Assembly (NCBI GenBank): GCA_011170375.1
Contig: DUEV01000002.1
Span: 263,052 to 327,051, forward strand
Direction of reading: 5' to 3'
DNA length: 64,000 nucleotides
Source of the DNA: Dehalococcoidia bacterium
GTDB taxonomy: Bacteria; Chloroflexota; Dehalococcoidia; Dehalococcoidales; Fen-1064
Part shown: positions 38,596 to 59,736 of the stretch, one piece after another
How the letters are laid out: each line of letters begins with the position of its first letter
How positions within the stretch are numbered: position 1 is the first letter of the stretch
Translations under genes and position numbers: made by a program
The notes under the pieces: model-generated
Told to the model about the DNA's origin: nothing
What the model saw: only the letters and a program-made list of their open reading frames with translations
Database searches by the model: none

Positions 38596-40029
38596 TTGCC
38601 ACAGCCAGTCCTGCTTATCAATACCAACTTAGCACGACCTCCAGTTAGTCCAGTAGGTCTGGAGTATGTCGGCGAGGCCCTCGTAGAAGCCGGTCTGCCA
38701 GTCCGCATCCTCGACCTAGCGCTAGAAAACGACTGGCAGACAGCGCTAGCCAGAGAATTAGCACGAGAAGAGCCTCTTCTGGTGGGACTAACAGTACGAA
38801 ACACCGACGATTGCTCCTTTGCTACCAGAAAATCCTTCCTGCCATGGATTACTGAAATCACCGCCGAAGCAAAGCATCTCACCAGTGCGCCCGTTCTCCT
38901 CGGTGGTGTCGGGTTCTCCATAATGTCTGAAGCTGTCCTCAGGCTCACGGGAGCGGATATCGGTATCGCTGGTGATGGAGAAGAGGTCGTACCAGCCCTG
39001 CTCAAATGCCTGATAAATAATGAAGACATCAGACACCTGCCCAACCTTGTTTACCGGCAGAATGAAAAAATCATCTGTAACAGAAGAATAGACGTCAACC
39101 CCGAACTCTTCCCGATACCACGCCGCCGTCTCTTTGACAACCGGAGATATGAGGAACTGGGAGCGCTAGTAGGCATAGAGACGAAACGGGGCTGCCCCCA
39201 GCAGTGCATTTACTGCGCCGACCCCGTGGCGAAGGGGGCCAATGCACGACTCCGGCCACCTGGCAGGGTGGTACAGGAGTTCCGAGACCTGCTAACCAGC
39301 GGAGTATCATGGTTTCACCTGTGCGACAGTGAATTTAACCAGCCGCTTAACCACGCCAAGGCGATATGCCGTGCTATCATAGAAGCCAACCTGGGAGACA
39401 GGTTGCACTGGTACACCTACTGCTCGCCGGTGCCATTCGACCTCGAACTAGCCATGCTGATGAAACAGGCTGGCTGCAACGGCATCAACTTTGGAGTTGA
39501 CTCCCTTTGTGACGAGCAGCTATCGAGGCTGGGGCGCAGCTACTCCGTGGATAACATCCGGCAGCTAACACGCATCCTGGAGCAGACTGGACTGGACTAT
39601 ATTTTCGACCTGCTTATCGGCGGCCCCGGTGAGACACAGACCACCGTCACAACAACCATCGAGACCGCAAAAAAGCTCGATGTCCCTCTGGTTGGAATAG
39701 CCGCCGGTGTACGATTATACCCCGGGACACCGCTCAGCCGTGATATAGCCAGTGGCATTATCAGAGAAGGACTGCACCCTGAGGGGGCTTCTGAGTTCCA
39801 CGAACCAGCATTTTATCTGTCCCCTCATCTCGGTAATGACCCTTTCCAGCTAGTTCATGAGCTTGTAGGTAGTGACCCCCGCTTCCTATTGCTCGTATCT
39901 CCCGATGAAGAAGAGAGCTACAACTACACGGATGACCAGGCACTTTGCCGGATGATAGATGAGGGTGCCAGAGGCGCCTACTGGCACATCCTCAGTAAGA
40001 ACCGAGGGCAGACAGAAGCTACGCCATAG
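38596..40029 (+). CDS. Cobalamin(B12)-binding-domain radical SAM protein
   Basis: 477 aa with a TTG start. The N-terminal Rossmann-like B12-binding region (VLLINTNLARPPVSPVGLEYVGEAL...) is followed by ETKRGCPQQCIYCADP (CxxxCxxC). Confidence 0.8.
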   Translation: MPQPVLLINTNLARPPVSPVGLEYVGEALVEAGLPVRILDLALENDWQTALARELAREEPLLVGLTVRNTDDCSFATRKSFLPWITEITAEAKHLTSAPVLLGGVGFSIMSEAVLRLTGADIGIAGDGEEVVPALLKCLINNEDIRHLPNLVYRQNEKIICNRRIDVNPELFPIPRRRLFDNRRYEELGALVGIETKRGCPQQCIYCADPVAKGANARLRPPGRVVQEFRDLLTSGVSWFHLCDSEFNQPLNHAKAICRAIIEANLGDRLHWYTYCSPVPFDLELAMLMKQAGCNGINFGVDSLCDEQLSRLGRSYSVDNIRQLTRILEQTGLDYIFDLLIGGPGETQTTVTTTIETAKKLDVPLVGIAAGVRLYPGTPLSRDIASGIIREGLHPEGASEFHEPAFYLSPHLGNDPFQLVHELVGSDPRFLLLVSPDEEESYNYTDDQALCRMIDEGARGAYWHILSKNRGQTEATP

Positions 40030-40187
40030 CTCATCTCAATCATATATTTAATGGCACCACGACTACCCTGCCCGAATCTACGAAGAATACCAGCAAAATA
40101 TAGAAAATTCTCTCTTTCTGTGATTACACTGGAGCTAGTCACAACCCCCGTCTGATAGCCCGTTCTCATTGGTTGAGGAGGGATTAT

Positions 40188-40394
40188 ATGGGACAAAAGG
40201 GGTTCAGTGACAAATACCATAAACCCCATAATAGGGGCAGGTATATAGTTCAGCATTGGACAAAGGGGGCCAAACATGGTAACCTGCATCCAGTAATTCT
40301 AGGAGGAGGCTTAGCCATGACGAATAGAATTACCAATTGGGGGGAGTACTTCTCACACACAATGTCCTTTATCCGCAAGCTCCTATTCGAGTGA
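40188..40394 (+). CDS. Hypothetical basic small protein (68 aa); doubtful
   Basis: The SD GAGGAGGG lies 5 nt before the ATG at 40188. A second strong SD (AGGAGGAGG) precedes an in-frame ATG at 40316 (25 aa). No family recognised. Confidence 0.25.
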   Translation: MGQKGFSDKYHKPHNRGRYIVQHWTKGAKHGNLHPVILGGGLAMTNRITNWGEYFSHTMSFIRKLLFE

Positions 40395-40651
40395 GGGAGT
40401 TCACTCACAATCATCGGAGCTAGTTAGGAAGTATCCTCCCCTAGAAACCAACTCCTGACTAGGCACAAGTACCTGACCTGCGTATTCCGTAGCTTTTCTC
40501 ACGCTTTTCCAGTCAATTACGTAGATACCCCAAGACCTAGCTCATTTCCGATGAATGACAAGACGTCTGTGAAGGCGTATGAAGAGGGGAATCTCTTGTT
40601 ATAAACAATAGCATATGTGAATATGAGTCTGGAGCGAAGGAAGAAGTTGAT

Positions 40652-41329
40652 ATGACGACTATAGGTGAGCAGATTCTGATTAATATAGATGAGAAACAGG
40701 TCTTACGCGATGTCGGGTACTGTGCTACTTGTAAACCGCCGGCTCGCGTAACAGCACTAGCACGTGACTACGCAGCAAACGTAAATCAGCTGATTAATCC
40801 CGCATTTTCATATGTCATCAAAGATATTGACTTCGTCATTAATTCAAGTGTTTTTATTGAAGGCGGAGCTATTTTCCAAAGCCAGGTTATCTCTGAATTA
40901 CTCAAAAAGTGTGAGAAAGTGGCCGTATTTGCCCTGACTATAGATGGTTATCTTGAGGACACTGTTGCCCAGCTTGCAGAAGATGGGCTCATCGTACAGG
41001 CCAGGTTACTTGACGCCATAGGCTCAAACGCGGTTGAGCGGGTGGCTGACTATGTGCAGTATATAATAAAACAGAGGGTTAGCACTCAGGGGCTTCAAAT
41101 TAGTCGGCGCTTTAGCCCAGGTTATTGCGATTGGGAAGTAAACCAACAGCAGACGCTTTTCCGTACCCTTAATGGCAGTATCATCAGTATTCAATTGACT
41201 GAAGAGAACCTGATGATTCCCCGCAAATCAATATCGGGCATCATTGGTATCGGAACCCTTGCAAGCGAGATAGTGAGCTACAATCCGTGTTTATCCTGCC
41301 AAAAGCACGATTGTGTCGGCAGGAGATAG
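40652..41329 (+). CDS. Stand-alone protein resembling the MetH (B12-dependent methionine synthase) activation domain
   Basis: 225 aa. ...ISRRFSPGYCDWEVNQQQTLFRTL...LTEENLMIPRKSISGIIGIG resembles the RxSPGYxxW...LTExxxMxPxKSVSG core of the Met_synt_B12 domain. This is recalled from memory and not verified. Confidence 0.6.
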   Translation: MTTIGEQILINIDEKQVLRDVGYCATCKPPARVTALARDYAANVNQLINPAFSYVIKDIDFVINSSVFIEGGAIFQSQVISELLKKCEKVAVFALTIDGYLEDTVAQLAEDGLIVQARLLDAIGSNAVERVADYVQYIIKQRVSTQGLQISRRFSPGYCDWEVNQQQTLFRTLNGSIISIQLTEENLMIPRKSISGIIGIGTLASEIVSYNPCLSCQKHDCVGRR

Positions 41330-41335
41330 ACATTA

Positions 41336-42781
41336 ATGAAACCTATTCGTAAAGGTGTTATTGGAGGTAGATACAAGCCACTTTCCGAGGAGTCAGTAAA
41401 AAAAGTTCATGAGACCGCCATGCGGTTGATTGAGGAAGTAGGCTTCCAGGTAAACTCAGAAACAGCCTTGGGGCTTTTTCAGAAAGCTGGAGCCCAGGTA
41501 GACAGAGAAAGGCGGCTGGTACGTCTACCTCATGAAAAAGTAATAGAACTGATAAATACAGCTCCCTCCGAAGTCAGGTTTTGCGGGCAAGAAGAAGAGC
41601 ATGACATACTCCTTGGAGGGAGCCGTGTATATGCCGGTACCGGTGGAACCGCCCTCAATATCTATGAGCCAGACACAGGCCAAAGACGCCTCGCCACTCT
41701 GGAAGATATAAGGCGAATTGCCAAACTGGTCAATAGTCTAGACAATATCCATCTTTTTATGTTAGCTACCTATCCCAATGAACTACCTGTGGAGCAAGTA
41801 GACGTAAACCGCTTTTTTGCCGGGCTGGACAACAGCACCAAGCACATCATGGGTGGTGTCTACACAGCCGAGGGAGTGAAACAGGTAGTACGCATGGCCG
41901 AGATAGTGGCTGGCTCCGCAGAAGCTCTCCGGGAACGCCCAATTATCTCGATGATAGCCTGTAGCATGAGTCCCATGAAGCTGGATGCTCACTACGGTGA
42001 CCTGGTGGTTGTCATTGCCGAGAGCGGTATCCCGCTTGTATGCCCGGCCGAGCCTCTATGCGGGGCTACTTCACCGGTTACGCTGGCCGGTAATCTAGTA
42101 ATACAGACAGTTGATTCACTGATGGGTGTTATGCTCGCCCAGATTGTAAACCCGGGAACACCGACTATCTTCGGCTCAGTAGCCACCAGCACGGACTTGT
42201 CTAACCTTGGCTATCTGGCCGGTTCAATTGAGATGGGACTGATTAATGCCGCCGGTGCTCAGATGGCGCAATTTTACAAGCTCCCCTTTTATGCCACTGG
42301 CGGTATGACAGACTCCAAGGTACTGGATGCCCAGAGCGGTTATGAATCAGCCCTGACCGGTCTGCTCTGTGCACTGGCAGGCTCCAATTTTATCCACGAC
42401 GCCGCCGGGCTCATGGAATTCGCCATGACAGTATGCTATGAGAAGCTCGTTATCGACAATGAAATACTGGGAATGGTGATGAGAGCAGTCGAAGGCATCA
42501 GAGTGGACGACGAGACGCTGGCATTCGACCTCATCAAAGAGGTGGGGCCGGGGGGTAATTTTGCCACCGCCAAGCACACCAGGCGTTTCATGCGCACTGA
42601 GCACTACCTGCCTACTCTGACTGACAGAGACAGCCGGGCTGACTGGGAAACGAAGGGGAGCAAGGCCACCTGGCAGCGAGCCGGAGAAATCGCAAGGCAG
42701 CTTATAGCCGATAGTAACTACCATCTCCCTGAGACAGTCAGACAGCAAATACTCTCTGAAATGAAAGGTATAGTAGAATAA
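41336..42781 (+). CDS. MttB (trimethylamine methyltransferase) superfamily protein, non-pyrrolysine, paralog 1
   Basis: 481 aa. N-terminal YKPLSEESVKKVHETAMRLIEEVGFQV...FQKAGAQVD is typical of MttB. The frame is uninterrupted with no in-frame TAG. Confidence 0.9.
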   Translation: MKPIRKGVIGGRYKPLSEESVKKVHETAMRLIEEVGFQVNSETALGLFQKAGAQVDRERRLVRLPHEKVIELINTAPSEVRFCGQEEEHDILLGGSRVYAGTGGTALNIYEPDTGQRRLATLEDIRRIAKLVNSLDNIHLFMLATYPNELPVEQVDVNRFFAGLDNSTKHIMGGVYTAEGVKQVVRMAEIVAGSAEALRERPIISMIACSMSPMKLDAHYGDLVVVIAESGIPLVCPAEPLCGATSPVTLAGNLVIQTVDSLMGVMLAQIVNPGTPTIFGSVATSTDLSNLGYLAGSIEMGLINAAGAQMAQFYKLPFYATGGMTDSKVLDAQSGYESALTGLLCALAGSNFIHDAAGLMEFAMTVCYEKLVIDNEILGMVMRAVEGIRVDDETLAFDLIKEVGPGGNFATAKHTRRFMRTEHYLPTLTDRDSRADWETKGSKATWQRAGEIARQLIADSNYHLPETVRQQILSEMKGIVE

Positions 42782-42785
42782 ATAT

Positions 42786-43595
42786 ATGCTGGTAATCGGA
42801 GAAAAAATTAACGCTTCCAACAGGCTCGTTGCTGAGGCTATTATTGCTAGGAACGAAGGGTACATAGCGGGACTAGCCAAAGCGCAGGCTGACGCCGGGG
42901 CCGATTTCATTGACGTGAATGTTGGCACAGCCAAACAGACCAGGCAGGAACAGATGGCAGCCATGGAGTGGGCGGTAGAAGCTGTACAAACGGCCACTGA
43001 CAAGCCACTGGCAATTGATAGTGATATCCCTGAAGTCATAGAAACAGGTATGCGAAAATATGGCAAGGAAGAACTGGTAATTAACTCCGTCAATGCCGAA
43101 CCAGAAAAGTTGGAAGCAATAGGTCACCTTGCTGGCGGGCGTCAGGTGCGGCTGGTAGCACTGGCAATGAGTGCCGAGGGAATACCCCCCACCGCAGAAG
43201 AGAGACTGGCAACCTGCGAAACAATAATGACATACCTGACACGGCTCGGTGTTAGTGAAGAGCAGGTCTATTTTGACCCGCTGGTGCTTCCTGTAAGTGT
43301 CGATTCAGGACAAGCACTGACAACACTGAAGACTCTTGAACGAATCAAAGTGCGGTATCCACAAGCAAAAACAGTAATGGGCCTGAGCAACGTCTCCTAT
43401 GGTCTACCCAACCGAAAGCTAATAAACCGGGCATTCCTGCTAATGGCAGCCTATGTCGGACTGGATGCTGCCATACTCGACCCTCTCGACGCCAAAGCAA
43501 TGAGCCTCATTAAAGCCGCTGACATTCTCGTTGCAAAGGACCCGCAATGCCGGCGGTACATCAGAGCCTACCGAAACGGCACTCTGATGGCTTAG
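42786..43595 (+). CDS. Pterin-binding methyltetrahydrofolate:corrinoid methyltransferase (MtgA/MtqA/AcsE-like)
   Basis: 269 aa. MLVIGEKINAS..., GADFIDVNVG, and LSNVSYGLPNR, typical of the DHPS-like pterin-binding barrel. Confidence 0.85.
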   Translation: MLVIGEKINASNRLVAEAIIARNEGYIAGLAKAQADAGADFIDVNVGTAKQTRQEQMAAMEWAVEAVQTATDKPLAIDSDIPEVIETGMRKYGKEELVINSVNAEPEKLEAIGHLAGGRQVRLVALAMSAEGIPPTAEERLATCETIMTYLTRLGVSEEQVYFDPLVLPVSVDSGQALTTLKTLERIKVRYPQAKTVMGLSNVSYGLPNRKLINRAFLLMAAYVGLDAAILDPLDAKAMSLIKAADILVAKDPQCRRYIRAYRNGTLMA

Positions 43596-43605
43596 GAGAG
43601 ATACG

Positions 43606-45123
43606 ATGGGAAGAAACGGAGTGCTCGTAGAGCCATACCAACGACTGAATGAAGTGCAGATAGAGAAGATACATCAGGCTTCACTGAGTATCCTACTTGA
43701 TCCAGGTATTATCTGCTTTAACAAAGACGCAGCTCAGGTCTTTGGTGATAACGGCGCTGAGGTTGAGCCGGGCGCTCAGGAAGATAGCTGGCTAGTCAGG
43801 ATACCCGAAAAAATCATATCAGAAGCAGTATCAGCGGCACCGAAGGTAGTGAAACTGGGAGCCCGCGACGAGGACAACTGCCTTGTTCTTGACGGGAGTG
43901 AGCCTAGGATACACTTTGCCTCTGGCTCCGAGGCCAATAATTGGCTCGACGTGGATATAGAGCCGTTTATCAGCAAACGAGACCCCAGTAAAGAGATGGC
44001 TTTTCCTGTGTTCACTATCCGGAAGGGCACGGTGGATAGACTGGCGCAAGCAGCACACCTCTGCGAGCACCTGGACTCGTGGGACAGCTTCCTGCGCACA
44101 GTCAATATCCAAGACGACGATATTGACGATACCAACAAGGATGTCAACAAGTTCTTTGCCTCTCTGAACAATACCACCAAGCACGTCATGTCCGGACTGA
44201 CCGACCTCAGCCAGCTCGAAAACGTGCTCAAGATGGCGGAGATTATTGCGGGGGGTCAAGACAAGCTCAGAGATAATCCCATTATTTCTTTTATCACCTG
44301 CACAATTAAGAGCCCTCTTCAGCTTGTAGACGATACTTCACAGAAAGCCATAGAAGTAGCCAGGAGAAAGATTCCGCTAGTAATTTCGAGTTCCCCTCAG
44401 GGTGGCTCGACTGCCCCAATAACGGAAGAAGGTATGGTATCCCAGATAAACGCCGAGATTCTGGTGGGAATAGCCCTGGCCCAGCTGGTTAGTAAAGGGG
44501 CACCGGTGCTATATGGCAGCGTGCCTGTTAGAACCCGCCTGGATGACCTTAATGACTCCTACGGAGTCCCCGAGTTCAGCCAGTACAACATAGACTGCGT
44601 CCAAATGGCACGTTACTATGGCCTGCCGTGCTATTCTACAGCCGGCGTCTCTGATGTGGAGGTACCCGGCATACAGGCCCTGGTGGAGAGGCTATTCTCG
44701 CACATCCTGGTAGCTCTATCTGGTGCACAATACATCCACTATGCCTTCGGTTTACTGGAACGGACGAATACCTTTTGCCCCGTTCAAGCCATACTCGACA
44801 ATACACACATCGAAATGGTCAAGAGATTTGTTCAAAAGTCGGATTTTACAGACGACTCGATTACGGAATGTCTGGAGCAGGTACGGAGAGTCATGGGTAC
44901 GTCACACAAGCTGTATATGCGCTTTGTTCGTAAAGCCCTGCGCTCCGGTGAGATAGCCCCCCCTTATCCCTTCGAAAGCAAAGGAATGACAGACGAGACC
45001 ATGCTACGTGCCAGGGAACGGATGGACGAAATACTATCATTGCCATCCTGCCATATGGACAAAGCAACGGTAGATATGATATATCAACAAGTACCTGGCC
45101 TGTTACCTAGGCTGCGCAGCTAG
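43606..45123 (+). CDS. MttB superfamily protein, non-pyrrolysine, paralog 2
   Basis: 505 aa. YQRLNEVQIEKIHQASLSILLDPGI...FGDNGAEVE. It has no in-frame TAG and is clearly diverged from paralog 1. Confidence 0.9.
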   Translation: MGRNGVLVEPYQRLNEVQIEKIHQASLSILLDPGIICFNKDAAQVFGDNGAEVEPGAQEDSWLVRIPEKIISEAVSAAPKVVKLGARDEDNCLVLDGSEPRIHFASGSEANNWLDVDIEPFISKRDPSKEMAFPVFTIRKGTVDRLAQAAHLCEHLDSWDSFLRTVNIQDDDIDDTNKDVNKFFASLNNTTKHVMSGLTDLSQLENVLKMAEIIAGGQDKLRDNPIISFITCTIKSPLQLVDDTSQKAIEVARRKIPLVISSSPQGGSTAPITEEGMVSQINAEILVGIALAQLVSKGAPVLYGSVPVRTRLDDLNDSYGVPEFSQYNIDCVQMARYYGLPCYSTAGVSDVEVPGIQALVERLFSHILVALSGAQYIHYAFGLLERTNTFCPVQAILDNTHIEMVKRFVQKSDFTDDSITECLEQVRRVMGTSHKLYMRFVRKALRSGEIAPPYPFESKGMTDETMLRARERMDEILSLPSCHMDKATVDMIYQQVPGLLPRLRS

Positions 45124-45149
45124 GAGCTGTACTAGAGAGGAAAAGCGAA

Positions 45150-45848
45150 ATGACTGAAGATATTATCGCACTAATAAAGGAAAACGTTATCCAGGGAAGG
45201 GTAACTGCAGATGACGAAGGTATGGATGAAGGATGGGTGGGCAAACCGGGAGTTACCGAACTGGTGGAACAGGCCCTCGCCGAGAATGTCAGTGTGGCAG
45301 ATATTATCAACAAGGGCCTTACCGACGGCATGAGCGTGGTCGGTGAGAAATTCGAGTCCAAGGAGTACTTTATTCCCGACATGCTCGCTTCGGCGGAAGC
45401 GGTTGGTAGTGCCATGGAAATACTAGAGCCGCACCTGAGCAAGAGTGGCATAGAAGCCAAAGGTAAAATCATTGTGGCCACTGTAAAAGGTGACCTCCAT
45501 GACATTGGCAAGAATATCGTGTCGATACTACTTCGAGGTTCCGGTTACATAGTAAAAGACCTCGGGAACGATGTTGAGCCTCAGGCTATCGTGGATGCGG
45601 TGAAAAAAGAAAATCCACAGTTTGTCGGCCTATCAGCGCTACTTACCAGCACCATGGTGAATATGGGTGAGACGATACAGGCCCTCAAGGACAACGGGCT
45701 GAGAGACAAGGTGAAAGTAATCATCGGTGGCGCGCCAGTCTCGGAAGAGTTTGCCCAGAGTATTGGCGCTGATGGCTACGGCGCCGACGGATTCCAAGCA
45801 GTAGCCATAGTCGAGTCCCTGGCCTCAGGCAGCGGTGGGAACAGCTAA
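45150..45848 (+). CDS. Corrinoid (cobalamin-binding) protein, MtgC/MttC-like
   Basis: 232 aa. An N-terminal helical cap, then DxHxxG (GDLHDIGKNIV), SxL (LSALLT) and GG (IIGGAPV). This is the complete base-off/His-on B12 motif set. Confidence 0.9.
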   Translation: MTEDIIALIKENVIQGRVTADDEGMDEGWVGKPGVTELVEQALAENVSVADIINKGLTDGMSVVGEKFESKEYFIPDMLASAEAVGSAMEILEPHLSKSGIEAKGKIIVATVKGDLHDIGKNIVSILLRGSGYIVKDLGNDVEPQAIVDAVKKENPQFVGLSALLTSTMVNMGETIQALKDNGLRDKVKVIIGGAPVSEEFAQSIGADGYGADGFQAVAIVESLASGSGGNS

Positions 45849-47077
45849 TGGCTCAGGAAATAGACGCATATAATGAGGCACTGAGCAGTGGCCAGTATGA
45901 GAAGCCCGGCGGCCTCATTGGCAAATACGACAACGCACGCCGCTTCTGGGAGGACGAGCAACTCGGCCTTTACCTGCGTCCATACCTGGAACGGATGGTA
46001 GCCCGCAAACAGAACCGCCGGGAAAAGCTGCATATCATGGATATTGGCTGCGGTAGCGGGGACGGCTTTGAGTTTATCACCAGCATTGACAAAAGCCAGT
46101 CTCCAATTTCGCAGCACGACAGTCGACTTATCACGCCATCCACAGTTGAGCTCTACACAGGGGTTGACATCAACGATGGACTGGTAAAACAGGCACAGGG
46201 CACATACGGGAACCGGGACAATATGGAATTCATCGTTTCGGACTTCAACGACTACCCGTTTACTGAGGGACCACCCTATGATGTCTATCTTGCCAACTAT
46301 GGCACCTTTTCCCACAACACGGATGAACAAACGACAAAAATCCTGAATAAACTCGCCAGACATTCCGATAACGGTGCCATAATCGCTATCGACTGGTTGG
46401 GGCGCTATTCATACGAGTGGCAGTCGCTATGGACCAGGGACTTGAAGAATAACCAGTGGATGGATTATGTCATCTCCTACATTTATACTGAAGACGAGAG
46501 GGAGACACAGGACCTGACCGCCTTTGCACTAAGAATAGTCGGGCGGGCAGAGGTGCAGCACATCTACCATCAGGCGAAAAAGATGGGAGGAGGGGCTCTC
46601 GTGCTACGCAAGCTGGTTGACCGCTCCTCATTTGTCGGCCGGCACATGGACACGAAACAATATAATCCTCATGCCCAACCCCTCCGTGGGTTAGTAAACT
46701 CGCTCTTCGAACCCAACGTTTCCACCAATCTGGATGAACTAATGATAGACTATGTCCCTATGGAAGGCTTTGATGAAGTAAACGCCTACCACCGTGAACT
46801 GACCAGGTGGTGGAACTACCTCATAGCTTGCATCAAGGCACTGCTGGAGAAAAAGGCTACCCCGGAAGCCCCGGCAAGGACACCCGGTGTTGTCACGAGG
46901 GCACTCAGCGCTATGAAGAAAACAATCAGAAGTGCTGACAGAATCAAAATTGGCAACCCACGGAGCAGCCTGATTGAGCCACAGCTTGGCTACTGTCTCA
47001 GGGAGCTCGAGATAGGCCTACAAAAAGGACTCGGCTGCGGTCACGGACTGGTAGCCATTTTCGAGATTGTGAAATAG
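45848..47077 (+). CDS. Large class I SAM-dependent methyltransferase (409 aa) with an uncharacterised C-terminal half
   Basis: Motif I IMDIGCGSGDGFEF, then GVDINDGLV. The ATG overlaps the corrinoid protein's TAA (TAATG). Confidence 0.65.
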   Translation: MAQEIDAYNEALSSGQYEKPGGLIGKYDNARRFWEDEQLGLYLRPYLERMVARKQNRREKLHIMDIGCGSGDGFEFITSIDKSQSPISQHDSRLITPSTVELYTGVDINDGLVKQAQGTYGNRDNMEFIVSDFNDYPFTEGPPYDVYLANYGTFSHNTDEQTTKILNKLARHSDNGAIIAIDWLGRYSYEWQSLWTRDLKNNQWMDYVISYIYTEDERETQDLTAFALRIVGRAEVQHIYHQAKKMGGGALVLRKLVDRSSFVGRHMDTKQYNPHAQPLRGLVNSLFEPNVSTNLDELMIDYVPMEGFDEVNAYHRELTRWWNYLIACIKALLEKKATPEAPARTPGVVTRALSAMKKTIRSADRIKIGNPRSSLIEPQLGYCLRELEIGLQKGLGCGHGLVAIFEIVK

Positions 47078-47116
47078 GTCCCGCACAGGCCAAGACTTCA
47101 GGAGGACCCCCATTAG

Positions 47117-48634
47117 ATGAGCGGACTGGCTGTTGCCTTTGGCGACTCAGGTCGAAATGAAATAAACGCCATCATGCGCAAGATTGCCCACCGAGGTCCG
47201 TATACCTCAGGGGTATACGAAAACGGTCGTATTATCATGGCCCAGAACTACCTCCAGGCGGACGGCACCACTGCCGATGGCAGCAATATCCCCGTCCGGA
47301 GTAGCCACAATACAGACCTGGCAATCTGTTACGATGGACAAATCGGCAACTGGCCCGAGCTTACCCAACGATATGACATACCAGATGGTGCCTATAAAGA
47401 AGAACGATTACTGCTAGCCCTTTATGAAAAATACGGTCTGGATATGCTCCGGCATCTGAATGATGCCATTTTTACCTTTGTTATTTCTGATGGAAAAGAC
47501 CTTTTTGCCGCTCGTGACCTGCTCGGTATAAAAACCATGTTCTACGGCCGTAAAGACGATACCCTGTATCTTGCCTCGGAACTCAAGGCCATATTAGCAG
47601 TAACCGATGAGGTCTACGAGTTCCCCAACGGGCACTACCTTGACCAGAGCGAGCGGTTTACCCGATTCGCTGGGCTGCCACAAAGTCCGCCCAGGTTCTG
47701 GGACTACGACGTCGAGAAGATGGCGGCGGACATCCGCGAAATCATCGAGCGCAGCTTCCGAAACCGGATTGATTTCTCAGTACCCACCGGGGGTCTGCTC
47801 AGTGGTGGGATGGACAGCAGCGTCATCAACTATCTCGCCAGCAAAGCCTATAAGAAGAAGCATGGGCAGACAGCCAGACTAAAGACATTTGCTCTCGGCG
47901 TCGGAGAGAGTAGCGACATCCTGTCTGCCCGCATCATGGCCGAACATATAGATTCCGAGCACCATGAATTACTTGTTGACCTCAAGCAGATACTGGAAGT
48001 CCTTCCCGAGGTAATCTACTACCTGGAGAGCTTCGACCCGTCGCTGGTCAGAAGTGCCGTGTCCAACTACCTCATCTCACGATATGCCAGGGACCACGGT
48101 ATCCAGATACTACTCTCTGGAGAGGGCGGGGACGAGATATTCTGCGGGTATAAGTACCTGGAAAATTACCCTGCCGATGAACTGTTTGCCAAGCAGATGG
48201 AATGCCTCGGTTTCCTGCACAATAATGCTTCACTTCGGCTCGACCGCATGAATATGTGCAATTCTGTCCGTGTTGTCGCCCCGTTGATATCGGGAGAGCT
48301 GCTGCAGTACGCCATGTCGATACCCCCACAGTACAAGCAGAAGCCTGAGGGAAGCGGGAAGATGGAGAAATGGATTTTCCGCAAGGCCTACGAAGCCCTG
48401 CTGCCCGAATCTATCTTATGGCGGGGCAAGCAGGAATTCTCCCAGGGCTCAGGCTCTGCCGGTGTCCTGCCAGCCCACTTTGAAAAACAGTTCTCCGACC
48501 AGGAACTTACCGAGGCCCAGGCCAGATATCCCATAATCCGCAGCAAAGAAGAGCTCTACTATTTCAATGTCTTCACCGAGCACTTCGGGACAGACCATAC
48601 TGTGGCAACCGTGGGACAGTGGATATCTCTTTAA
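47117..48634 (+). CDS. Asparagine synthetase B-like PP-loop enzyme with Ser in place of the N-terminal nucleophile Cys
   Basis: 505 aa. Starts MSGLAVAF rather than the canonical MCG. It retains HRGP, YDGQIGN, RDLLGIK and the PP-loop SGGMDSS. SD CAGGAGGA. Confidence 0.85.
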   Translation: MSGLAVAFGDSGRNEINAIMRKIAHRGPYTSGVYENGRIIMAQNYLQADGTTADGSNIPVRSSHNTDLAICYDGQIGNWPELTQRYDIPDGAYKEERLLLALYEKYGLDMLRHLNDAIFTFVISDGKDLFAARDLLGIKTMFYGRKDDTLYLASELKAILAVTDEVYEFPNGHYLDQSERFTRFAGLPQSPPRFWDYDVEKMAADIREIIERSFRNRIDFSVPTGGLLSGGMDSSVINYLASKAYKKKHGQTARLKTFALGVGESSDILSARIMAEHIDSEHHELLVDLKQILEVLPEVIYYLESFDPSLVRSAVSNYLISRYARDHGIQILLSGEGGDEIFCGYKYLENYPADELFAKQMECLGFLHNNASLRLDRMNMCNSVRVVAPLISGELLQYAMSIPPQYKQKPEGSGKMEKWIFRKAYEALLPESILWRGKQEFSQGSGSAGVLPAHFEKQFSDQELTEAQARYPIIRSKEELYYFNVFTEHFGTDHTVATVGQWISL

Positions 48635-48685
48635 CGTGCGACGCGTGTCATCAGTTATCGGGCACCGGATACCTTCAAAATTAGC

Positions 48686-48713
48686 TTGACAAACGGCAGG
48701 TAACGGCATAATG
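48686..48713 (+). promoter_or_regulatory. Promoter-like TTGACA-N15/16-CATAATG upstream of the glycyl radical enzyme gene
   Basis: -35 at 48686-48691. The spacing to CATAAT (48707-48712) is only 15 nt, or 16 nt to ATAATG. Confidence 0.35.
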
Positions 48714-48762
48714 TTTGTGGTATAGGGAACTCACCAGAATGACCTGGCTAAAGGAGACAGTC

Positions 48763-51237
48763 ATGGTTATTGCAGAAAAACCGAAATTGAAGGAAGACCG
48801 GATAACTAAGGAGATGAGGAAAGACCTTGCCTACCAGAGCAAGAGCGGACGGGGGGCGGGGAGAATTGAGGCATCCGAAGGAAAGGTTGAGAGAGTTATC
48901 GAAGAAGGACGGATGCCTTATCGCCCGGAAATAAGACTCTGCATTGAGCGGGCCCGGTTAATAACCGAAGGCTATAAGCAGGCGGAAGAAGACCCCATAA
49001 TCCTGAGACGGGCCAAGGCCCTGGCACATTATCTGGACAACCGGACGCTGTATATCCTTCCCCACCAGAGAATCGTGGGCAATAGCGCCAGTGAGCCCTG
49101 CTCACTGATTACCTTCCCGGAGAAGTGGAGCAACTGGCTGGAAAAGGCCGTCGATGGTGAGTATCAGATGCTCTTGCCCGATGAGAAAGACAGGCAGGAG
49201 TTGCATGAGATTCACAAGTACTGGCGTAACAGATCTGTCCACGGCATGGAGCGACGCCTGCTCCCTGAGGATGTACTGGAATACTGGTACTACAACAACC
49301 AGGGGGTATTTATGTGGCTTCATGGCGGCCATGTCGGCACACCGAACTATGAAAGGATGTTTAAGACGGGGCTGAGAGGGGTGGTGGAGGAGGCTAAGGC
49401 CAAACTGGAAGAAACATCCTCGGATCCGGAGCTCTACCTCCATCCCGGAGACTACCTCAACAAAAAGCGCTTCTATGAGGCTGTAATAATAATCACGGAG
49501 GCGGTCATTAACCAGGGCAAGAGGTTCTCCCAGCTATGCCAGCAGGAGGCAGCCGCGGAAAAGGATGAAAAGAGGAAGGCCGAACTGGTGGAGATGGCCG
49601 AGATATGCGAATGGGTGCCAGAGAACCCACCCCGCACCCTCCACGAGGCGTTGCAGTCCTTCTGGTTCATCAACTTGATTGCCAGAGTGCTCGACCTGCA
49701 GACTTCGGGAAATGGTGAGAGAATCGACCAGATATTCTATCCCTTCTACAAGAAGGATAAGGAGGAGGGGAGGCTTACCTATGAGGAGGCCGAGGAACTG
49801 GTAGAGCACCTGGTGCTCATGTTCAACGAGGAAGGGGCACTGATTCCCCCGTCCCAACCAAAGGCCGGTCCCCTGATCACGCGCGTCACTACCATTGGCG
49901 GCGTGACCCGTGAGGGGGCAGACGCTACCAACGAGATGACTTTCATGTTCATGGACGCCAAAAACGAAATGGGGCTTAATCAGCCGGCGCTGGCGGTCAG
50001 GCTACACCCCCAGACCCCCCAGGCACTATACGAAAAGATATTGGAGTCTGTGCTGAAGCAGCCAGGCGTCTATTCTTTCTTCAACGATAGCATGATGATT
50101 CCCTTCCTGATGAACCTGGGCATACCTCTGGAGGATGCCCGTGATTACACCACTGATGGCTGCATGAGGTGGATTATCCCGGGCAAAGCCATGAGCCAGC
50201 GGGCCCTCGGTGGCAGGGTCGCTCTGCCAAAGTGCCTGGAATATGCCCTATACCAGGGAGTGGACAAGTTCAGCGGCAAGCAGGTGGGACCCCGCACCTC
50301 CGACCCCCTGACCTGGACATCCGTTGAGGACGCGATGCAAGGATACGAGGAACAGCTAAGATTCTTCATGCACAAGCTGTTCACCATATACAATCTGGTG
50401 GACATGCTTGACGGAGAATGGCTGCCGCAGCCTTTCCTTTCTGCCGTGGTGGATGACTGTATTGAGCAGGGGAAGGATGTCCGCGAATATAAATATTACC
50501 CCAACACCATCATTCAGCCGGTCGGTCAGGTGACCATAATCAACTCCTTGGCAGCCATGAGAAAGCTGGTATTCGACGATAAGAAAGTGTCCATGGCAGA
50601 GCTGCTCGATGCCCTCAGGAACAACTGGGAAGGCAAGGAAGACCTGCGTCAGATGTTCCTCAATGAGCCCCCCAAGTGGGGTAACGATGATGACTACGTC
50701 GACCTCATCGGACGTGACTTCTACACGAGGACGAACAGGGTGGTAAAGAGCTTTAAGAACATCTGGGGCGTCTCCCATAACGAGGACGGGACCGGAGCCT
50801 CAACCTACTTCGACTACAGCGGGATGACCGGCGCCACGCCTGACGGCAGAAAAGACCTCGACCTGTTCAATGACGGCACGGTATCCCCAGCCGTCGGTAC
50901 AGATTTGAAGGGGCCGCTGGCAACCATGAAGTCGGTGAGTAAAATTGACCATGCCGGCACCTTCACCCACCTGTTCAATCAGAAGTTTACCCCGGCTGAG
51001 GTGAAGAGGAACGACGGGGCCAACTTCATTGCCCTGCTCAGGACGTTCGTTGACCTCGGCATCCATCATACCCAGTTTAACGTGAGTGACCGGGAGACAC
51101 TGCTGGATGCCCAGAAGCACCCAGAGAAGTACGGTGACCTGGTGGTCAGGGTGGCTGGACTGGCCGCCTACTTCGTCGACCTGACCAAACCGGTGCAGGA
51201 CCAGATTATCGCCCGGACGGAGCTGAGCTTCGGTTGA
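48763..51237 (+). CDS. Glycyl radical enzyme, PFL2/eliminase-like clade, atypical active-site loops
   Basis: 824 aa from the ATG at 48763 (SD AAAGGAG); the track start at 48715 is 16 codons longer. N-terminal RARLITEGYKQAE...RIVGN. Cys loop LEDARDYTTDGCMRW (TGC at 50161). C-terminal glycine radical motif VVRVAGLAAYFVDL...QDQIIARTE (GGA at 51157). Confidence 0.9.
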   Translation: MVIAEKPKLKEDRITKEMRKDLAYQSKSGRGAGRIEASEGKVERVIEEGRMPYRPEIRLCIERARLITEGYKQAEEDPIILRRAKALAHYLDNRTLYILPHQRIVGNSASEPCSLITFPEKWSNWLEKAVDGEYQMLLPDEKDRQELHEIHKYWRNRSVHGMERRLLPEDVLEYWYYNNQGVFMWLHGGHVGTPNYERMFKTGLRGVVEEAKAKLEETSSDPELYLHPGDYLNKKRFYEAVIIITEAVINQGKRFSQLCQQEAAAEKDEKRKAELVEMAEICEWVPENPPRTLHEALQSFWFINLIARVLDLQTSGNGERIDQIFYPFYKKDKEEGRLTYEEAEELVEHLVLMFNEEGALIPPSQPKAGPLITRVTTIGGVTREGADATNEMTFMFMDAKNEMGLNQPALAVRLHPQTPQALYEKILESVLKQPGVYSFFNDSMMIPFLMNLGIPLEDARDYTTDGCMRWIIPGKAMSQRALGGRVALPKCLEYALYQGVDKFSGKQVGPRTSDPLTWTSVEDAMQGYEEQLRFFMHKLFTIYNLVDMLDGEWLPQPFLSAVVDDCIEQGKDVREYKYYPNTIIQPVGQVTIINSLAAMRKLVFDDKKVSMAELLDALRNNWEGKEDLRQMFLNEPPKWGNDDDYVDLIGRDFYTRTNRVVKSFKNIWGVSHNEDGTGASTYFDYSGMTGATPDGRKDLDLFNDGTVSPAVGTDLKGPLATMKSVSKIDHAGTFTHLFNQKFTPAEVKRNDGANFIALLRTFVDLGIHHTQFNVSDRETLLDAQKHPEKYGDLVVRVAGLAAYFVDLTKPVQDQIIARTELSFG

Positions 51238-51268
51238 ACGGCATAGGGTTATCGTACTGTCTCGGCCT

Positions 51269-52183
51269 GTGAGCGGCATGGAAGAAGAGCGCGGTCTGGT
51301 ATTCCTCATCCAGAGGTACAGCGTCCAGGACGGCCCCGGCCTGAGGACTACCATATTCATGAAGGGGTGCCCGCTGCGGTGTCAGTGGTGCCAGAACCCC
51401 GAGTCTCTTAGTCTTCACCCCGACCTCATGACCCACGACACGAAGTGTATGCTGCTCGGTAAATGCGCTGATGCTTGTCCCCTGGGGGCGATTACTATCG
51501 ACCGGAAGAGCCGGAAGATTGACCGTGCCAAGTGCGACCTCTGCTTTCACTGTGTCGACACCTGCCCCACTAAAGCCCTGAGCAAGGTGGGGGAATACAT
51601 GACAGTGGCAGAGGTAATGGCGGAAATCGAGCGGGACGAGCTCTTCTATCGTCGGTCGGGTGGGGGGGTAACAGTCTCGGGTGGCGAGCCGCTGCTTCAA
51701 TGGCAATTCGTCCATAGGCTATTAGAGGCGTGCAAGCAGAGACACCTGCACACTGCTCTGGACACCTGCGGATACGCCCAATGGCCCATACTGGAAAAAG
51801 TCTTAGAGCATGTCGACCTCGTTCTCTACGACATCAAGCACATTGACCCGGAGCTTCACAAGAAAGCCACCGGCAAGAGCAACCAGCGCATTCTGCGTAA
51901 TCTGCACCTGATACCTCCCCACAAAAAGGTTTGGCTCAGGCTCCCCCTCATCCCCGGATTCAACGATTCCAGAGAGAATCTAACGGAACTCGGCAAACTG
52001 GGGCAGGAAATCGGGGTGGAGAAGGTGAGTATCCTCCCCTATCACAAGCTGGCGGAGGAGAAATACCGGCAACTAGGCATGCAGCGTAAGATGTCCCCCC
52101 TCAAGCCCCCGACCAAAAGGCAGCTCCAGAAGGTGCAGCCACTTATCGAGAGCTTTGGCCTGCAGGTGACTATTGGGAGTTAG
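51269..52183 (+). CDS. Glycyl-radical enzyme activating protein (radical SAM with two auxiliary ferredoxin-like clusters)
   Basis: IQRYSVQDGPGLRTTIFMKGCPLRCQWCQNPE (CxxxCxxC), plus CMLLGKCADACP and CDLCFHCVDTCP. The track start is a GTG at 51269, with an alternative ATG at 51278. Confidence 0.9.
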   Translation: MSGMEEERGLVFLIQRYSVQDGPGLRTTIFMKGCPLRCQWCQNPESLSLHPDLMTHDTKCMLLGKCADACPLGAITIDRKSRKIDRAKCDLCFHCVDTCPTKALSKVGEYMTVAEVMAEIERDELFYRRSGGGVTVSGGEPLLQWQFVHRLLEACKQRHLHTALDTCGYAQWPILEKVLEHVDLVLYDIKHIDPELHKKATGKSNQRILRNLHLIPPHKKVWLRLPLIPGFNDSRENLTELGKLGQEIGVEKVSILPYHKLAEEKYRQLGMQRKMSPLKPPTKRQLQKVQPLIESFGLQVTIGS

Positions 52184-52225
52184 GGGTTATATATAGTAGC
52201 CTCAGGAGTATATCGGTACGGGTGT

Positions 52226-52444
52226 TCATCTGTGGGAGCCACTCAAGCACTTGGCACAATTGTCATATCCCTGACTGTGGGCTTCAAATAATATATCAGG
52301 TTCGAAGGTCACGGCATGACCAGCCCTGATAATCTCGTCGATTTGACACCCACTCCCTGAGGTATCTTCGTTATCCAGGTCATGCACTTCTTTCGACTTG
52401 ATGTTGCCGAGGAATCTTTTACCAGGATACTGAGGTCTACGCAT
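52226..52444 (-). CDS. Small Cys-containing protein (72 aa), possibly metal-binding
   Basis: ...SKEVHDLDNEDTSGSGCQIDEI...AHSQGYDNCAKCL resembles the xKxYHxxxC...GYxPCxxC small-domain pattern. SD AAGGGAGG. Confidence 0.45.
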   Translation of the reverse strand: MRRPQYPGKRFLGNIKSKEVHDLDNEDTSGSGCQIDEIIRAGHAVTFEPDILFEAHSQGYDNCAKCLSGSHR

Positions 52445-52658
52445 AACGTCACCTCCCTTGGCCGAATGTGGTCGGCCAGTGCAGGGATTATGACATAAAA
52501 GAAGGGTAAAGTAAATGACCCAAACGAACGTTGACCATGCTTGGGGTTTCAGTGAAGGGCAAAATGGTGTATACTTACCTCTTTAAAAGGCCTAAATATT
52601 CACTCGCCTGAGCTATATTCTTAGGCTATCCGGCGAAGAAAAATGGACTGTTTGATAC

Positions 52659-52836
52659 TTGACGGGTAGAGTCTTTGTGATATGATAGGGCTGAAGGTGG
52701 GGGAGGGGATGATAGTCTAGGTGGACCTTCAGAAAGGAGATGAGCCTATGTATGATGATAAATGGAGGTCTTCTGCCTAGATAGAAGACCTTCGCATTAA
52801 GAGCGGGGCCATCGTTTGGTGGTCCCGTTCTTATTT
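52659..52836 (+). ncRNA. Candidate small RNA / leader unit: promoter, two hairpins, a 10-codon micro-ORF and an intrinsic terminator
   Basis: TTGACG-N16-TATGAT (52659-52686). 8-bp helix CTGAAGGT/ACCTTCAG (52691-52732). SD AAAGGAG plus ATG at 52748 (MYDDKWRSSA*). 9-bp hairpin 52766-52791. Terminator CGGGGCCA-N8-TGGTCCCG followed by TTCTTATTT (52804-52836). No + strand gene follows. Confidence 0.3.
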
Positions 52837-52859
52837 ATGCTTCCCAGCAAGCAGGAAAT

Positions 52860-52964
52860 CTACCTGGTAGATACCACGAGTATCGCTATGGCAGAGAAAA
52901 GTATTACAATAGCAGCCAATGCCAGTGCCAGAAGTCCCCACCATGTTTTGTACCAATTGTGCAT
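52860..52964 (-). CDS. 34-aa hydrophobic micro-ORF (single TM); speculative
   Basis: My own translation: MHNWYKTWWGLLALALAAIVILFSAIAILVVSTR. A G-rich SD-like GGGGGGA lies 7 nt upstream. It is convergent with the 52659-52836 unit. Confidence 0.2.
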   Translation of the reverse strand: MHNWYKTWWGLLALALAAIVILFSAIAILVVSTR

Positions 52965-53031
52965 TGGTCGTCCCCCCAATAACAGGCAGGTCAAGCGGCG
53001 GGTATCAGCTAGCAGGAGAAAGACCCGAGTC

Positions 53032-53274
53032 TCATTTATCAGCGTAGTGCAAGAAAGCTAACCAGGCGTTGCGGTATCTGGTCCATGCCTTGTCCAAATT
53101 CTCCAAACGCTCCACGAACTGACGCGATGTAAGGGGCGCGATAACTGCCTGAAGGGATTTGCCTTCTATGATAGCCTCAGGCAGAGATTCTATCGTCTTA
53201 AGTTCATCCAGTGCCGCAGTGTATGTTTTAGCTGCTTCTATCAACTCCCAACGAGCTTCATCTTTTGTGACCAT
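53032..53274 (-). CDS. Hypothetical helical protein (80 aa)
   Basis: The SD GGAGGAG lies 3 nt before the ATG of MVTKDEARWELIEAAK...; the track start is 4 codons upstream. No family recognised. Confidence 0.45.
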   Translation of the reverse strand: MVTKDEARWELIEAAKTYTAALDELKTIESLPEAIIEGKSLQAVIAPLTSRQFVERLENLDKAWTRYRNAWLAFLHYADK

Positions 53275-53699
53275 TGTCTCCTCCACGATGCCCGGGTTCT
53301 TGCAGTAATTGTATCACAGTATCGGTATTCCTAGTAGGAAAAAGCAGATAGAAAGCGCTAGCAGAAATGTTAGCAATAACAATGTAAAGATGAGTATAAT
53401 AATCTGATAGGAATGTGGTATCGACAACCTCACACTCTCCTAAAGGAAAAATCGGTCAACCCTCTGTTAATCTTGAAAATTGTCATCTTAAAGTATATAT
53501 GTTACATTCATAAGATAGAATGTGCACGCACTCATCAACAACAATAACCACCTGCTACCAGCCCACGAGATGGCATGCTATTACCATTGATTCGGGATAA
53601 CTATATTACGTGATGATGGTGGTCAACAAATAGCAATTGCAGCCAGATGGCCGCTGAGATTAAGGCAGAAAATTCAATAATACCTGAAAGGAGTTTGGC

Positions 53700-59707: not shown

Positions 59708-59736
59708 CGTATAATGCATGAGAGAGGTTGACTAAT

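Follow-up and report, generated by a model that had tools for sequence, protein, structure and literature searches.

A nine-gene block in a Dehalococcoidia genome

We analysed a 64,000-nt stretch of DNA (the window) from the metagenome-assembled genome (MAG) of a Dehalococcoidia bacterium (assembly GCA_011170375.1, contig DUEV01000002.1, positions 263,052 to 327,051 of the forward strand), with emphasis on nine open reading frames (ORFs) that occupy positions 40652-52183 of the window and all lie on the plus strand. An initial annotation had read these ORFs as a single cluster in which a corrinoid-dependent methyl-transfer system and a glycyl radical enzyme (GRE) process one N-methylated compound. 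Our data suggest instead that the block consists of two modules: a corrinoid cassette of seven genes (A to G, module 1), and the GRE with its activating enzyme (module 2).

Domain calls were made with Pfam and NCBIfam profiles, the scores being compared with the cut-offs of the models. Gene A (40652-41329) encodes a 225-aa protein that resembles the MetH activation domain (PF02965) and has a C-terminal CxxCxxxxC motif. It is followed by gene B (41336-42781), which encodes MttB-1, a non-pyrrolysine methyltransferase of the MttB family (PF06253), and by gene C (42786-43595), the product of which is a predicted pterin-binding methyltransferase of the MtgA/AcsE type, acting between methyl-tetrahydrofolate (methyl-THF) and a corrinoid protein (NF005719, PF00809). 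Gene D (43606-45123) encodes MttB-2, a divergent MttB paralog (PF06253), and gene E (45150-45848) the cognate corrinoid protein, with B12-binding (PF02310) and cap (PF02607) domains. The cassette is completed by gene F (45848-47077), for a 409-aa class I S-adenosylmethionine (SAM) methyltransferase of an orphan family (Methyltransf_25/31/11), and gene G (47117-48634), for an AsnB-like PP-loop adenylating enzyme (PF00733, GATase_6/7) without the Cys1 nucleophile. Module 2 comprises the gene for a PFL2-family GRE of 824 aa (48763-51237; PF02901, PF01228) and that for its activating enzyme, a radical SAM protein with a ferredoxin-like insert (51269-52183; TIGR02494). A mechanical ORF call starts the GRE at TTG 48715, and the 824-aa orthologues favour ATG 48763.

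From gene A through the activase gene the gaps are 6, 4, 10, 26, -1, 39, 128, and 31 nt; the stop codon of gene E and the start codon of gene F share one nucleotide (TAATG at 45848). This layout, including the coordinates, gaps, and overlap, is exactly that of the initial annotation, and its domain call for every one of the nine proteins was correct by Pfam and NCBIfam. The same searches found no RamA, shell-protein, or transporter gene among the nine, as had been claimed. The block had also been described as free of terminator hairpins, and no convincing terminator was found between gene G and the GRE gene.

Two units of homology meet between gene G and the GRE

Comparison with related loci by blastn placed a breakpoint between the two modules at 48637-48677. 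On the cassette side, DNA homology started at 40162 (locus L081) and stopped at 48628-48642 (L081, L087, and L088), within a few bases of the stop codon of gene G at 48634. On the GRE side, homology started at 48677 or 48686 and ran to 52183 or 52575 (L001 and L002). Module 1 extends from 40162 to 48637 and module 2 from 48677 to 52575. The GREs of L001 and L002 are 93% identical in protein sequence to that of the window, and all that these loci have in common with the window is the GRE, the activase, and a promoter-like site, together with a 72-aa ORF in L002.

This promoter-like site lies at 48686-48714 on the plus strand (TTGACA, a 17-nt spacer, and TAATGT) and is followed by the GRE Shine-Dalgarno sequence, AAAGGAG, at about 48750. 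Both elements are kept in L001 and L002, although the genes that precede them there are different. The promoter-like site that the initial annotation placed at 48686-48713 is therefore real, being conserved upstream of orthologous GREs. It had also been described as the only such site inside the block; a consensus promoter scan missed the 48686 site and listed two other, weak plus-strand matches at 41718 and 50917. The numbers of promoter-like and terminator-like sequences in the region equalled the shuffle expectation.

We surveyed gene neighborhoods from both sides of the junction. A genome scan with the GRE alignment produced 80 loci, 51 of them with more than 5 kb of upstream sequence. With the 409-aa methyltransferase of gene F as the query, look-ups and a scan of metagenomes produced 85 cassette loci other than that of the window, of which 66 had at least 1 kb and 30 at least 4 kb of downstream sequence. 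The cassette lay beside a member of the GRE clade in none of the 80 loci, the 51 with long upstream sequence included; the GRE clade lay beside the cassette in none of the 85 loci, nor in any of the 30 with at least 4 kb downstream. The GRE thus has unrelated genes beside it in 80 of 80 loci, even where it is 93% identical to that of the window, and the side-by-side arrangement of GRE and corrinoid genes, for which the initial annotation had suggested such a survey, was seen in these loci only in the window's own population (L166-L170).

Throughout the 85 loci the cassette keeps the order A-B-(C)-D-E-F, and an AsnB-like gene continues it in 54 of the 66 loci with at least 1 kb of downstream sequence. 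The genes found 3' of the cassette elsewhere are mutually unrelated (Usp, DUF5679, MaoC, and an ECF sigma factor). Named sources of the GRE clade are Dehalococcoidia, Desulfobacterota, Syntrophomonadaceae, and Nitrospinae; named cassette matches are almost all from Chloroflexota.

The window's population is represented by five independent assemblies (L166-L170) with this arrangement of gene G, 128 nt, and GRE, and these rule out an assembly chimera at the junction. An apparent second co-localisation of cassette and GRE, in L141, L171, and L172, was rejected since the GRE belongs to a different clade (37% identical, with a GCVS loop). In L171 and L172 this GRE operon lies 8 kb from the cassette, and in L172 the GRE is on the opposite strand, with protease and sigma-factor genes in between.

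It could be argued that all nine genes serve one pathway, at least in this lineage, where the GRE unit would have been recruited to the side of the cassette, and that the corrinoid system demethylates an N-methylated compound which the GRE also cleaves. The nine genes share a strand, the gap between G and GRE is just 128 nt with no clear terminator, and the junction is reproducible in five assemblies. There are also weak echoes of the association elsewhere: the different GRE operon 8 kb from the cassette in L171 and L172, a MetH-activation-like ORF that adjoins a 45%-identical GRE in L021, and, in L033, an MttB fragment that precedes a 43%-identical GRE by about 7-10 kb. However, we regard a single pathway as very unlikely. 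The GRE clade and the cassette are together in none of the other 165 loci; separate units are indicated by the breakpoint and by the conserved promoter-like site that the GRE has to itself; the L172 echo involves a GRE that is distant in sequence, of the GCVS type, oppositely oriented, and separated from the cassette by protease and sigma-factor genes; and the GRE of the window is without the Glu of the enzymes that eliminate across C-N, C-O, or C-S bonds.

The most likely explanation, to which we assign a probability of about 0.7, is that the nine genes are a lineage-specific juxtaposition of two autonomous modules. Corrinoid chemistry and the GRE would then not form one pathway, and their adjacency would be an accident of gene order in one Dehalococcoidia lineage. 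The modules appear independent because of the switch in homology at 48637-48677, the absence of shared loci in the surveys (the cassette is without the GRE clade in 85 of 85 loci), and the GRE's own conserved promoter-like site; on these grounds the linkage proposed in the initial annotation was abandoned. Two points weigh on the other side. Read-through co-transcription from the cassette into the GRE gene is possible in this lineage, and, as the junction is stable in five assemblies, so is selection for adjacency.

The corrinoid core of the cassette

Gene A stands first in the cassette wherever upstream sequence extends that far. It scores only 28.7 bits with PF02965, a weak match that is confined to profile positions 121-246. 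Its product would take over the role of RamA and restore the corrinoid protein to activity through reductive methylation with SAM. A similar MetH-activation-like ORF (PF02965, 29% identical to gene A) was seen in L021 (6090-12400), directly upstream of a 45%-identical GRE. Genes for an aldehyde:ferredoxin oxidoreductase and a ThiF-family protein precede it, with no corrinoid gene nearby, and small proteins of the PF02965 type may also occur outside corrinoid systems.

The two MttB paralogs are about 30% identical to each other. MttB-1 matches PF06253 over its full length (363 bits, residues 12-465) and MttB-2 more weakly (192 bits, residues 9-426); both score below the cut-off of 525 for TIGR02369 (456.7 and 279.6, respectively). 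The pyrrolysine position of MttB-1 is occupied by Met324. We considered an Rfam match to PYLIS_3 at 42305-42404 (59.9 bits) as a possible pyrrolysine signal and rejected it, as it has AUG at the UAG of the model. The match recurs in all ten orthologous loci scanned and looks like conserved coding-sequence similarity rather than a recoding signal.

The closest solved structure to MttB-1 is that of MtgB from Desulfitobacterium hafniense (307 bits), in which glycine betaine is bound by Y97, R312, H348, and F356 (PMC13080624). The corresponding residues are G, Y, D, and A in MttB-1, invariant in 32 orthologues, and S, Y, Y, and T in MttB-2, invariant in 44 orthologues. As all four betaine-binding residues are replaced in both paralogs, glycine betaine should not be the substrate of module 1; and as neither of the two basic residues that bind the carboxylate is kept, the substrate probably has no free carboxylate.

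The product of gene C is a member of the NF005719 family (287.1 bits, cut-off 259). About half of the loci have a cassette without this gene, and in approximately 15 loci D follows directly after B. Gene E encodes the DxHxxG motif as DLHDIG at residue 115, along with its cap and B12-binding domains, and scores just under the cut-off for TIGR02370 (190.5 versus 215.3). In one locus (L113, 3802-7440) integrase fragments, a NucS-like nuclease gene, and a DUF3795 gene lie between gene C and the MttB-2 gene. We rejected these as pathway genes, since the insert consists of integrase and nuclease debris; the cassette tolerates insertion of a mobile element between C and D in this locus.

Genes F and G belong to the cassette in most loci

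Homologues of gene F are numerous (920 at E <= 1e-5), and among the best 120, which are 62-93% identical, none is characterised. Profile and single-sequence searches of the PDB gave no meaningful match. An AlphaFold2 (AF2) model of mediocre quality (pLDDT 65), submitted to Foldseek, matched generic class I methyltransferases only.

Gene G falls short of the cut-offs of two asparagine synthetase models, clearly for PRK09431 (393.7 versus 499) and narrowly for TIGR01536 (266.3 versus 267.1). Its PP-loop is intact (SGGMDS at residue 229), and its N-terminus reads MSG, as in every type-1 orthologue in which the N-terminus is present. A second AsnB-like type, about 31% identical, occupies the identical slot in 18 loci and begins with MAG or MSA. 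The Cys1 glutaminase nucleophile is therefore absent from every AsnB-like copy with its N-terminus present, and, given the intact PP-loop, the gene G product should activate a carboxylate as its adenylate and convert it to an amide with no need for glutamine. When we read the sequence by eye against Escherichia coli AsnB, the glutamine-site residues Arg49, Asn74, and Glu76 appeared to be replaced. Gene G is 100% identical to an NCBI protein of a Dehalococcoidia MAG (P0241), and NCBI names proteins of this type 'asparagine synthase-related protein'.

In its two domains, its intact PP-loop, and its lack of the N-terminal Cys, gene G is like the Cys-less relatives of AsnB, such as beta-lactam synthetase (BLS), carbapenam synthetase (CarA), and the lasso-peptide cyclases. 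In contrast to this likeness, it is much nearer in sequence to true AsnB (1CT9, 223 bits) than to BLS (53 bits) or CarA (38 bits).

One possibility is that F and G are housekeeping passengers outside the pathway, for example an ammonia-dependent asparagine synthetase and an unrelated methyltransferase. Gene G does come nearly to the asparagine synthase cut-off of TIGR01536 and keeps the PP-loop and KMEK region, and in 12 of 66 loci neither AsnB-like type is found directly after F. This explanation is nevertheless quite improbable. The AsnB-like slot after the cassette is fixed in 54 of 66 loci over a range of 57-90% identity; two AsnB-like types that are only about 31% identical share it, both without Cys1; the stop codon of gene E overlaps the start of gene F by 1 nt; and all 85 F loci have a corrinoid gene upstream of F wherever sequence reaches that far. 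The initial annotation was thus justified in placing the AsnB-like enzyme and the 409-aa methyltransferase with the corrinoid module, as these two genes follow it in an unchanging order in most of the 85 loci surveyed.

The cassette also exists in variant forms. A gene for an HDAC-family amidohydrolase comes after F in six loci (L113, L117, L121, L124, L127, and L128); it replaces G in five of these and precedes a type-2 AsnB-like gene in L113. In L117, L121, and L128 at least, three more ORFs follow the amidohydrolase gene, and those of L128 encode a CobW-type GTPase, a methyltransferase like URO-D/MtaA, and a second corrinoid protein. An ABC transporter of the OpuC/ProV type, its ATPase with CBS domains, adjoins the cassette in L113 and L128, and a permease matching this type of transporter does so in L106. 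Such Opu-type transporters beside the cassette support uptake and catabolism of a quaternary amine.

Predicted function of module 1

The best reading of module 1 is that of a conserved Dehalococcoidia operon that would carry out corrinoid-dependent demethylation of an N-methyl compound. From what is known of the family, one or both MttB enzymes would move a methyl group from an N-methylated compound, probably a quaternary amine, to the Co(I) corrinoid protein. The pterin-binding enzyme would pass it on to THF, and where gene C is missing an enzyme encoded elsewhere may do so. Cobalt that has become oxidised to Co(II) would be re-methylated with SAM by the gene A product in place of RamA. As a conjecture, F and G would be accessory enzymes that tailor the substrate or the demethylated product, for example by amidating a carboxylate.

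This scheme is modeled on known systems. MtgBCA and MthBCA consist of three components and transfer the methyl group of a quaternary amine to THF (PMC13080624, PMC12155760). Module 1 has the same parts as MtgBCA of D. hafniense (MtgB structures 2QNE and 9YCE), namely an MttB-family triosephosphate isomerase (TIM) barrel, a DxHxxG corrinoid protein, and a pterin-dependent methyl-THF enzyme. It differs from MtgBCA in that all four betaine residues of MtgB are replaced in both of its paralogs, in the addition of a second, divergent MttB, in the use of a MetH-activation-like protein instead of RamA, in the obligate linkage to a class I methyltransferase and a Cys-less AsnB-like enzyme, and in that the pterin enzyme is optional.

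The role suggested for F and G rests on an analogy with Eubacterium limosum, where choline and phosphocholine are demethylated by MthBCA with MthK, a kinase that makes phosphocholine for MthB (PMC12155760). In both cases an MttB-family system is clustered with an ATP-using enzyme, and MthK modifies the substrate before demethylation. On the other hand, the accessory enzyme is a kinase there, whereas the cassette would use an adenylating enzyme of the AsnB type together with a SAM methyltransferase.

A third comparison is with MetH and the split methionine synthases. In Thermotoga maritima, MetH has a separate reactivation protein. These systems resemble module 1 in having separate pterin, cap-plus-B12, and activation proteins, with reactivation of the PF02965 type implied. 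In contrast, the cassette has no homocysteine-binding module, MttB barrels standing in its place, and the PF02965 match of gene A is the weak, partial one described above. The MtgC/MtgD pair of Ruegeria and Phaeobacter is also a split methionine synthase system (PMC12478193).

Module 1 could alternatively be biosynthetic, with a methyl group supplied from methyl-THF, or passed from amine to amine by the two MttB paralogs, to an acceptor that F and G help to build; a tailored cofactor or a methylated osmolyte with an amide group would be examples. The cassette includes two typical tools of biosynthesis, an amide-forming enzyme that uses ATP and a SAM-dependent methyltransferase; there is no transporter in the cassette in most loci, the window included; and gene C is dispensable in about half of the loci, where two MttB enzymes and one corrinoid protein are left. 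Methylation of a tertiary amine from methyl-cobalamin is energetically unfavorable, though, and this counts against such a route. An Opu-type uptake system also adjoins the cassette in three loci. While the pterin enzyme of the split MetH/MtgBCD system of Ruegeria works in both directions (PMC12478193), every characterised member of the MttB family removes a methyl group from a quaternary amine or from trimethylamine (PMC13080624, PMC12155760). We consider a biosynthetic role unlikely.

Within the demethylation reading, it could be speculated that the cassette represents an undescribed pathway of marine-sediment Dehalococcoidia for an N-methylated compound other than a carboxylate betaine. The AsnB-type ligase, or in some lineages the HDAC-type amidohydrolase, would together with the methyltransferase make or unmask the MttB substrate, for example a betaine amide, and the MttB paralogs might be the donor and acceptor sides of a pterin-independent methyl relay. 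In this specific form the proposal is tentative, and on balance we think it somewhat unlikely. Against demethylation as the general function it must be said that the roles of F and G are guesses and that, with gene C missing in about half of the loci and the HDAC variant present in six, the pathway is not uniform.

Module 2 encodes an atypical glycyl radical enzyme

The GRE belongs to its family by both domains (PF02901, 567 bits; PF01228, 93 bits). The catalytic Cys467 lies in TDGCMRW and the glycyl radical residue, Gly799, in RVAGLA, and both are invariant in the clade. In the loop around Cys467, residues G466, C467, R469, and W470 are invariant in 24 aligned clade members, which are 58-93% identical. 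In contrast, the same loop aligns with GCVE in PflD, glycerol dehydratase, and HypD. The GRE scores 578.9 with the PFL2 model TIGR01774, below the cut-off of 678, and the best scores with equivalog models are 533, 521, and 452 against cut-offs of 1000, 1100, and 1050, respectively. The best solved structures reach about 445 bits, compared with 1812 bits for the closest GRE homologue. Among solved chains the order is glycerol dehydratase (445 bits), 5ymr_B (443 bits), and HypD (419 bits). The entry 5ymr_B is deposited as 'formate acetyltransferase'; we take it to be isethionate sulfite-lyase. The X-succinate synthases score lower still (MasD 388, BSS 373, and TutD 347 bits).

The initial annotation had called the GRE atypical, and this proved apt: with all equivalog models far below cut-off, no characterised enzyme forms a tight group with it. 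By its sequence, it falls in an uncharacterised PFL2 subclade in which Cys-x-Arg takes the place of the Cys-x-Glu of the eliminases.

The activating enzyme is a clear family member (TIGR02494, 359 bits against a cut-off of 174) with the motif CPLRCQWC at residue 34, and it is paired with the GRE in most related loci. In L010 (5045-14900; Dehalococcoidia MAG UBA2777), four tandem paralogs of the clade lie on one strand and are 57-65% identical to the GRE of the window.

The initial annotation had implied for the GRE a cleavage of C-N, C-O, or C-S bonds in a small polar, osmolyte-like substrate, that is, a 1,2-elimination by a dehydratase or lyase such as CutC, HypD, glycerol dehydratase, or IslA. 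There is much in common with these PFL2 1,2-eliminases (which also include propanediol dehydratase, IseG, and HpsG): the fold, the RVAG site, the catalytic Cys, and an activase of the type with extra Fe-S clusters. The GRE matches TIGR01774, which describes the PFL2 subfamily, and its best sequence matches are among them, with glycerol dehydratase, 5ymr_B, and HypD leading. However, 1,2-eliminases use the Glu two residues after the Cys as the general base, and at this position the clade invariably has Arg (GCMRW, not GCVE), which argues against osmolyte-cleaving chemistry. The scores are also about half of every equivalog cut-off, and the neighbors of the clade encode enzymes of coenzyme A (CoA) esters, not aldehyde dehydrogenases, shell proteins, or transporters. 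An eliminase of this kind is accordingly a doubtful assignment, with only a slim chance of being right.

Clustering of neighboring genes identified three recurrent families beside the GRE clade: enoyl-CoA hydratases (ECH), acyl-CoA dehydrogenases (ACAD), and paired family-III CoA-transferases. In 281 kb around 19 clade members (at least 49% identical) there were 8 ECH, 7 ACAD, and 8 family-III CoA-transferase genes, 23 in all, compared with 3, 0, and 1 (4 genes) in 768 kb of cassette loci, which served as the control. ECH genes often lie between GRE and activase in clade members, and in L014 and L016 the order is GRE, CoA-transferase, CoA-transferase, ACAD. The best family matches of these neighbors are of the dicarboxylate type: succinate/glutarate and mesaconate CoA-transferases, and subunits of pimeloyl-CoA dehydrogenase.

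The window contains a pair of PimC/PimD-like ACAD genes on the plus strand at 53700-54938 and 54996-56150 (Pfam Acyl-CoA_dh). Their best matches are the large and small subunits of pimeloyl-CoA dehydrogenase, at 188 and 228 bits, far below the cut-off. The same ACAD family is found near the GRE clade in 5-6 other loci, and the pair may be linked to the GRE even though it forms a separate transcription unit after a 1.5-kb gap.

From this neighborhood we infer that the GRE would act on or produce a mono- or dicarboxylic acid, probably a dicarboxylic one, that is handled as a CoA ester. Several observations are unfavorable to this. No CoA-transferase or ECH gene lies near the GRE in the window or in its closest relative, L001; in L002 a CoA-transferase pair is about 5 kb upstream, and the window has only the ACAD pair, 1.5 kb downstream. 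ACAD and ECH genes are, moreover, abundant in these genomes.

The CoA-ester neighbors recall BbsEF, BbsG, and BbsH, which accompany the X-succinate synthases (BssA/TutD and AssA/MasD) in loci with bbs genes. Here, on the other hand, there are no genes for small beta or gamma subunits beside the GRE: the gaps between gene G, GRE, and activase (128 and 31 nt) are too small for subunit ORFs, and the only conserved small ORF nearby, at 52226-52444, is on the opposite strand. In sequence, too, the GRE does not favor MasD, BSS, or TutD, which all score lower than the dehydratases (445 bits).

Leaders and flanking sequence

A promoter-like site of module 1 lies at 40256-40285 on the plus strand, about 370 nt upstream of gene A, with a -35 box TGGACA at 40257-40262, a 17-nt spacer, and a -10 box TAACCT at 40280-40285. 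Boxes of the type TGGACA-N17-TAnAAT align over 24 cassette loci. Between this site and gene A is an upstream ORF of 25 codons (40317-40394, plus strand) with the Shine-Dalgarno sequence GGAGGAGG. The leaders of the window, L081, and L084 each have an upstream ORF of 23-25 codons ending in ...FE*, while most other cassette leaders have AAGGAGG, a start codon, a single sense codon, and a stop codon (e.g., GTG ATC TGA).

We considered a riboswitch in the leader and rejected it. Rfam returned nothing in the window leader at E <= 1, nor in ten related loci at the gathering threshold, and RNAalifold found 0 consensus pairs in 16 cassette leaders. The conserved features of the leader are the promoter-like site and the small upstream ORF only.

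Just upstream of the cassette are genes for an alpha/beta hydrolase (37724-38533) and a 477-aa B12-binding radical SAM enzyme (38596-40029), neither of which is conserved beside the cassette in other loci. At the other end of the block, the 72-aa ORF (52226-52444, minus strand) is convergent with the activase gene. It shows 89% amino acid identity in L002, where homology extends to 52575, and gene calls for L166 and L167 include it. It travels with module 2. The 1.5 kb 3' of the activase gene (52184-53700) have few ORFs and a lower G+C content, and include a 16-bp hairpin with a T-rich tail at 52798-52833. Beyond the ACAD pair lie a gene for an ABC ATPase with TOBE domains (56246-57292) and, at 57725-63162, genes for GlgE (maltosyltransferase) and a TreS-maltokinase fusion, which constitute a trehalose-to-alpha-glucan pathway.

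Implications

Full-text searches of the literature found no description of the cassette or of the GRE clade. The MttB/corrinoid system of module 1 is new in three respects: it has a second paralog, its predicted reactivation protein is of the MetH type, and its two accessory enzymes are without precedent. Module 2 falls in a known family, in a subclade that is uncharacterised. To join corrinoid and radical chemistry in one hybrid pathway would have amounted to a new metabolic logic; the evidence does not support such a pathway, and recognising this spares effort on a misleading adjacency.

The cassette is widespread in uncultured sediment Dehalococcoidia, with 406 confirmed matches in one metagenome scan. 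It bears on the use of methylated nitrogen compounds by abundant subsurface Chloroflexota, compounds that otherwise feed methanogens, and accessory enzymes of the types encoded by F and G have never been reported with MttB systems. The Cys-x-Arg GRE clade of Dehalococcoidia and Desulfobacterota, with its CoA-ester neighbors of the dicarboxylate type, is a separate target for the discovery of new anaerobic radical chemistry.

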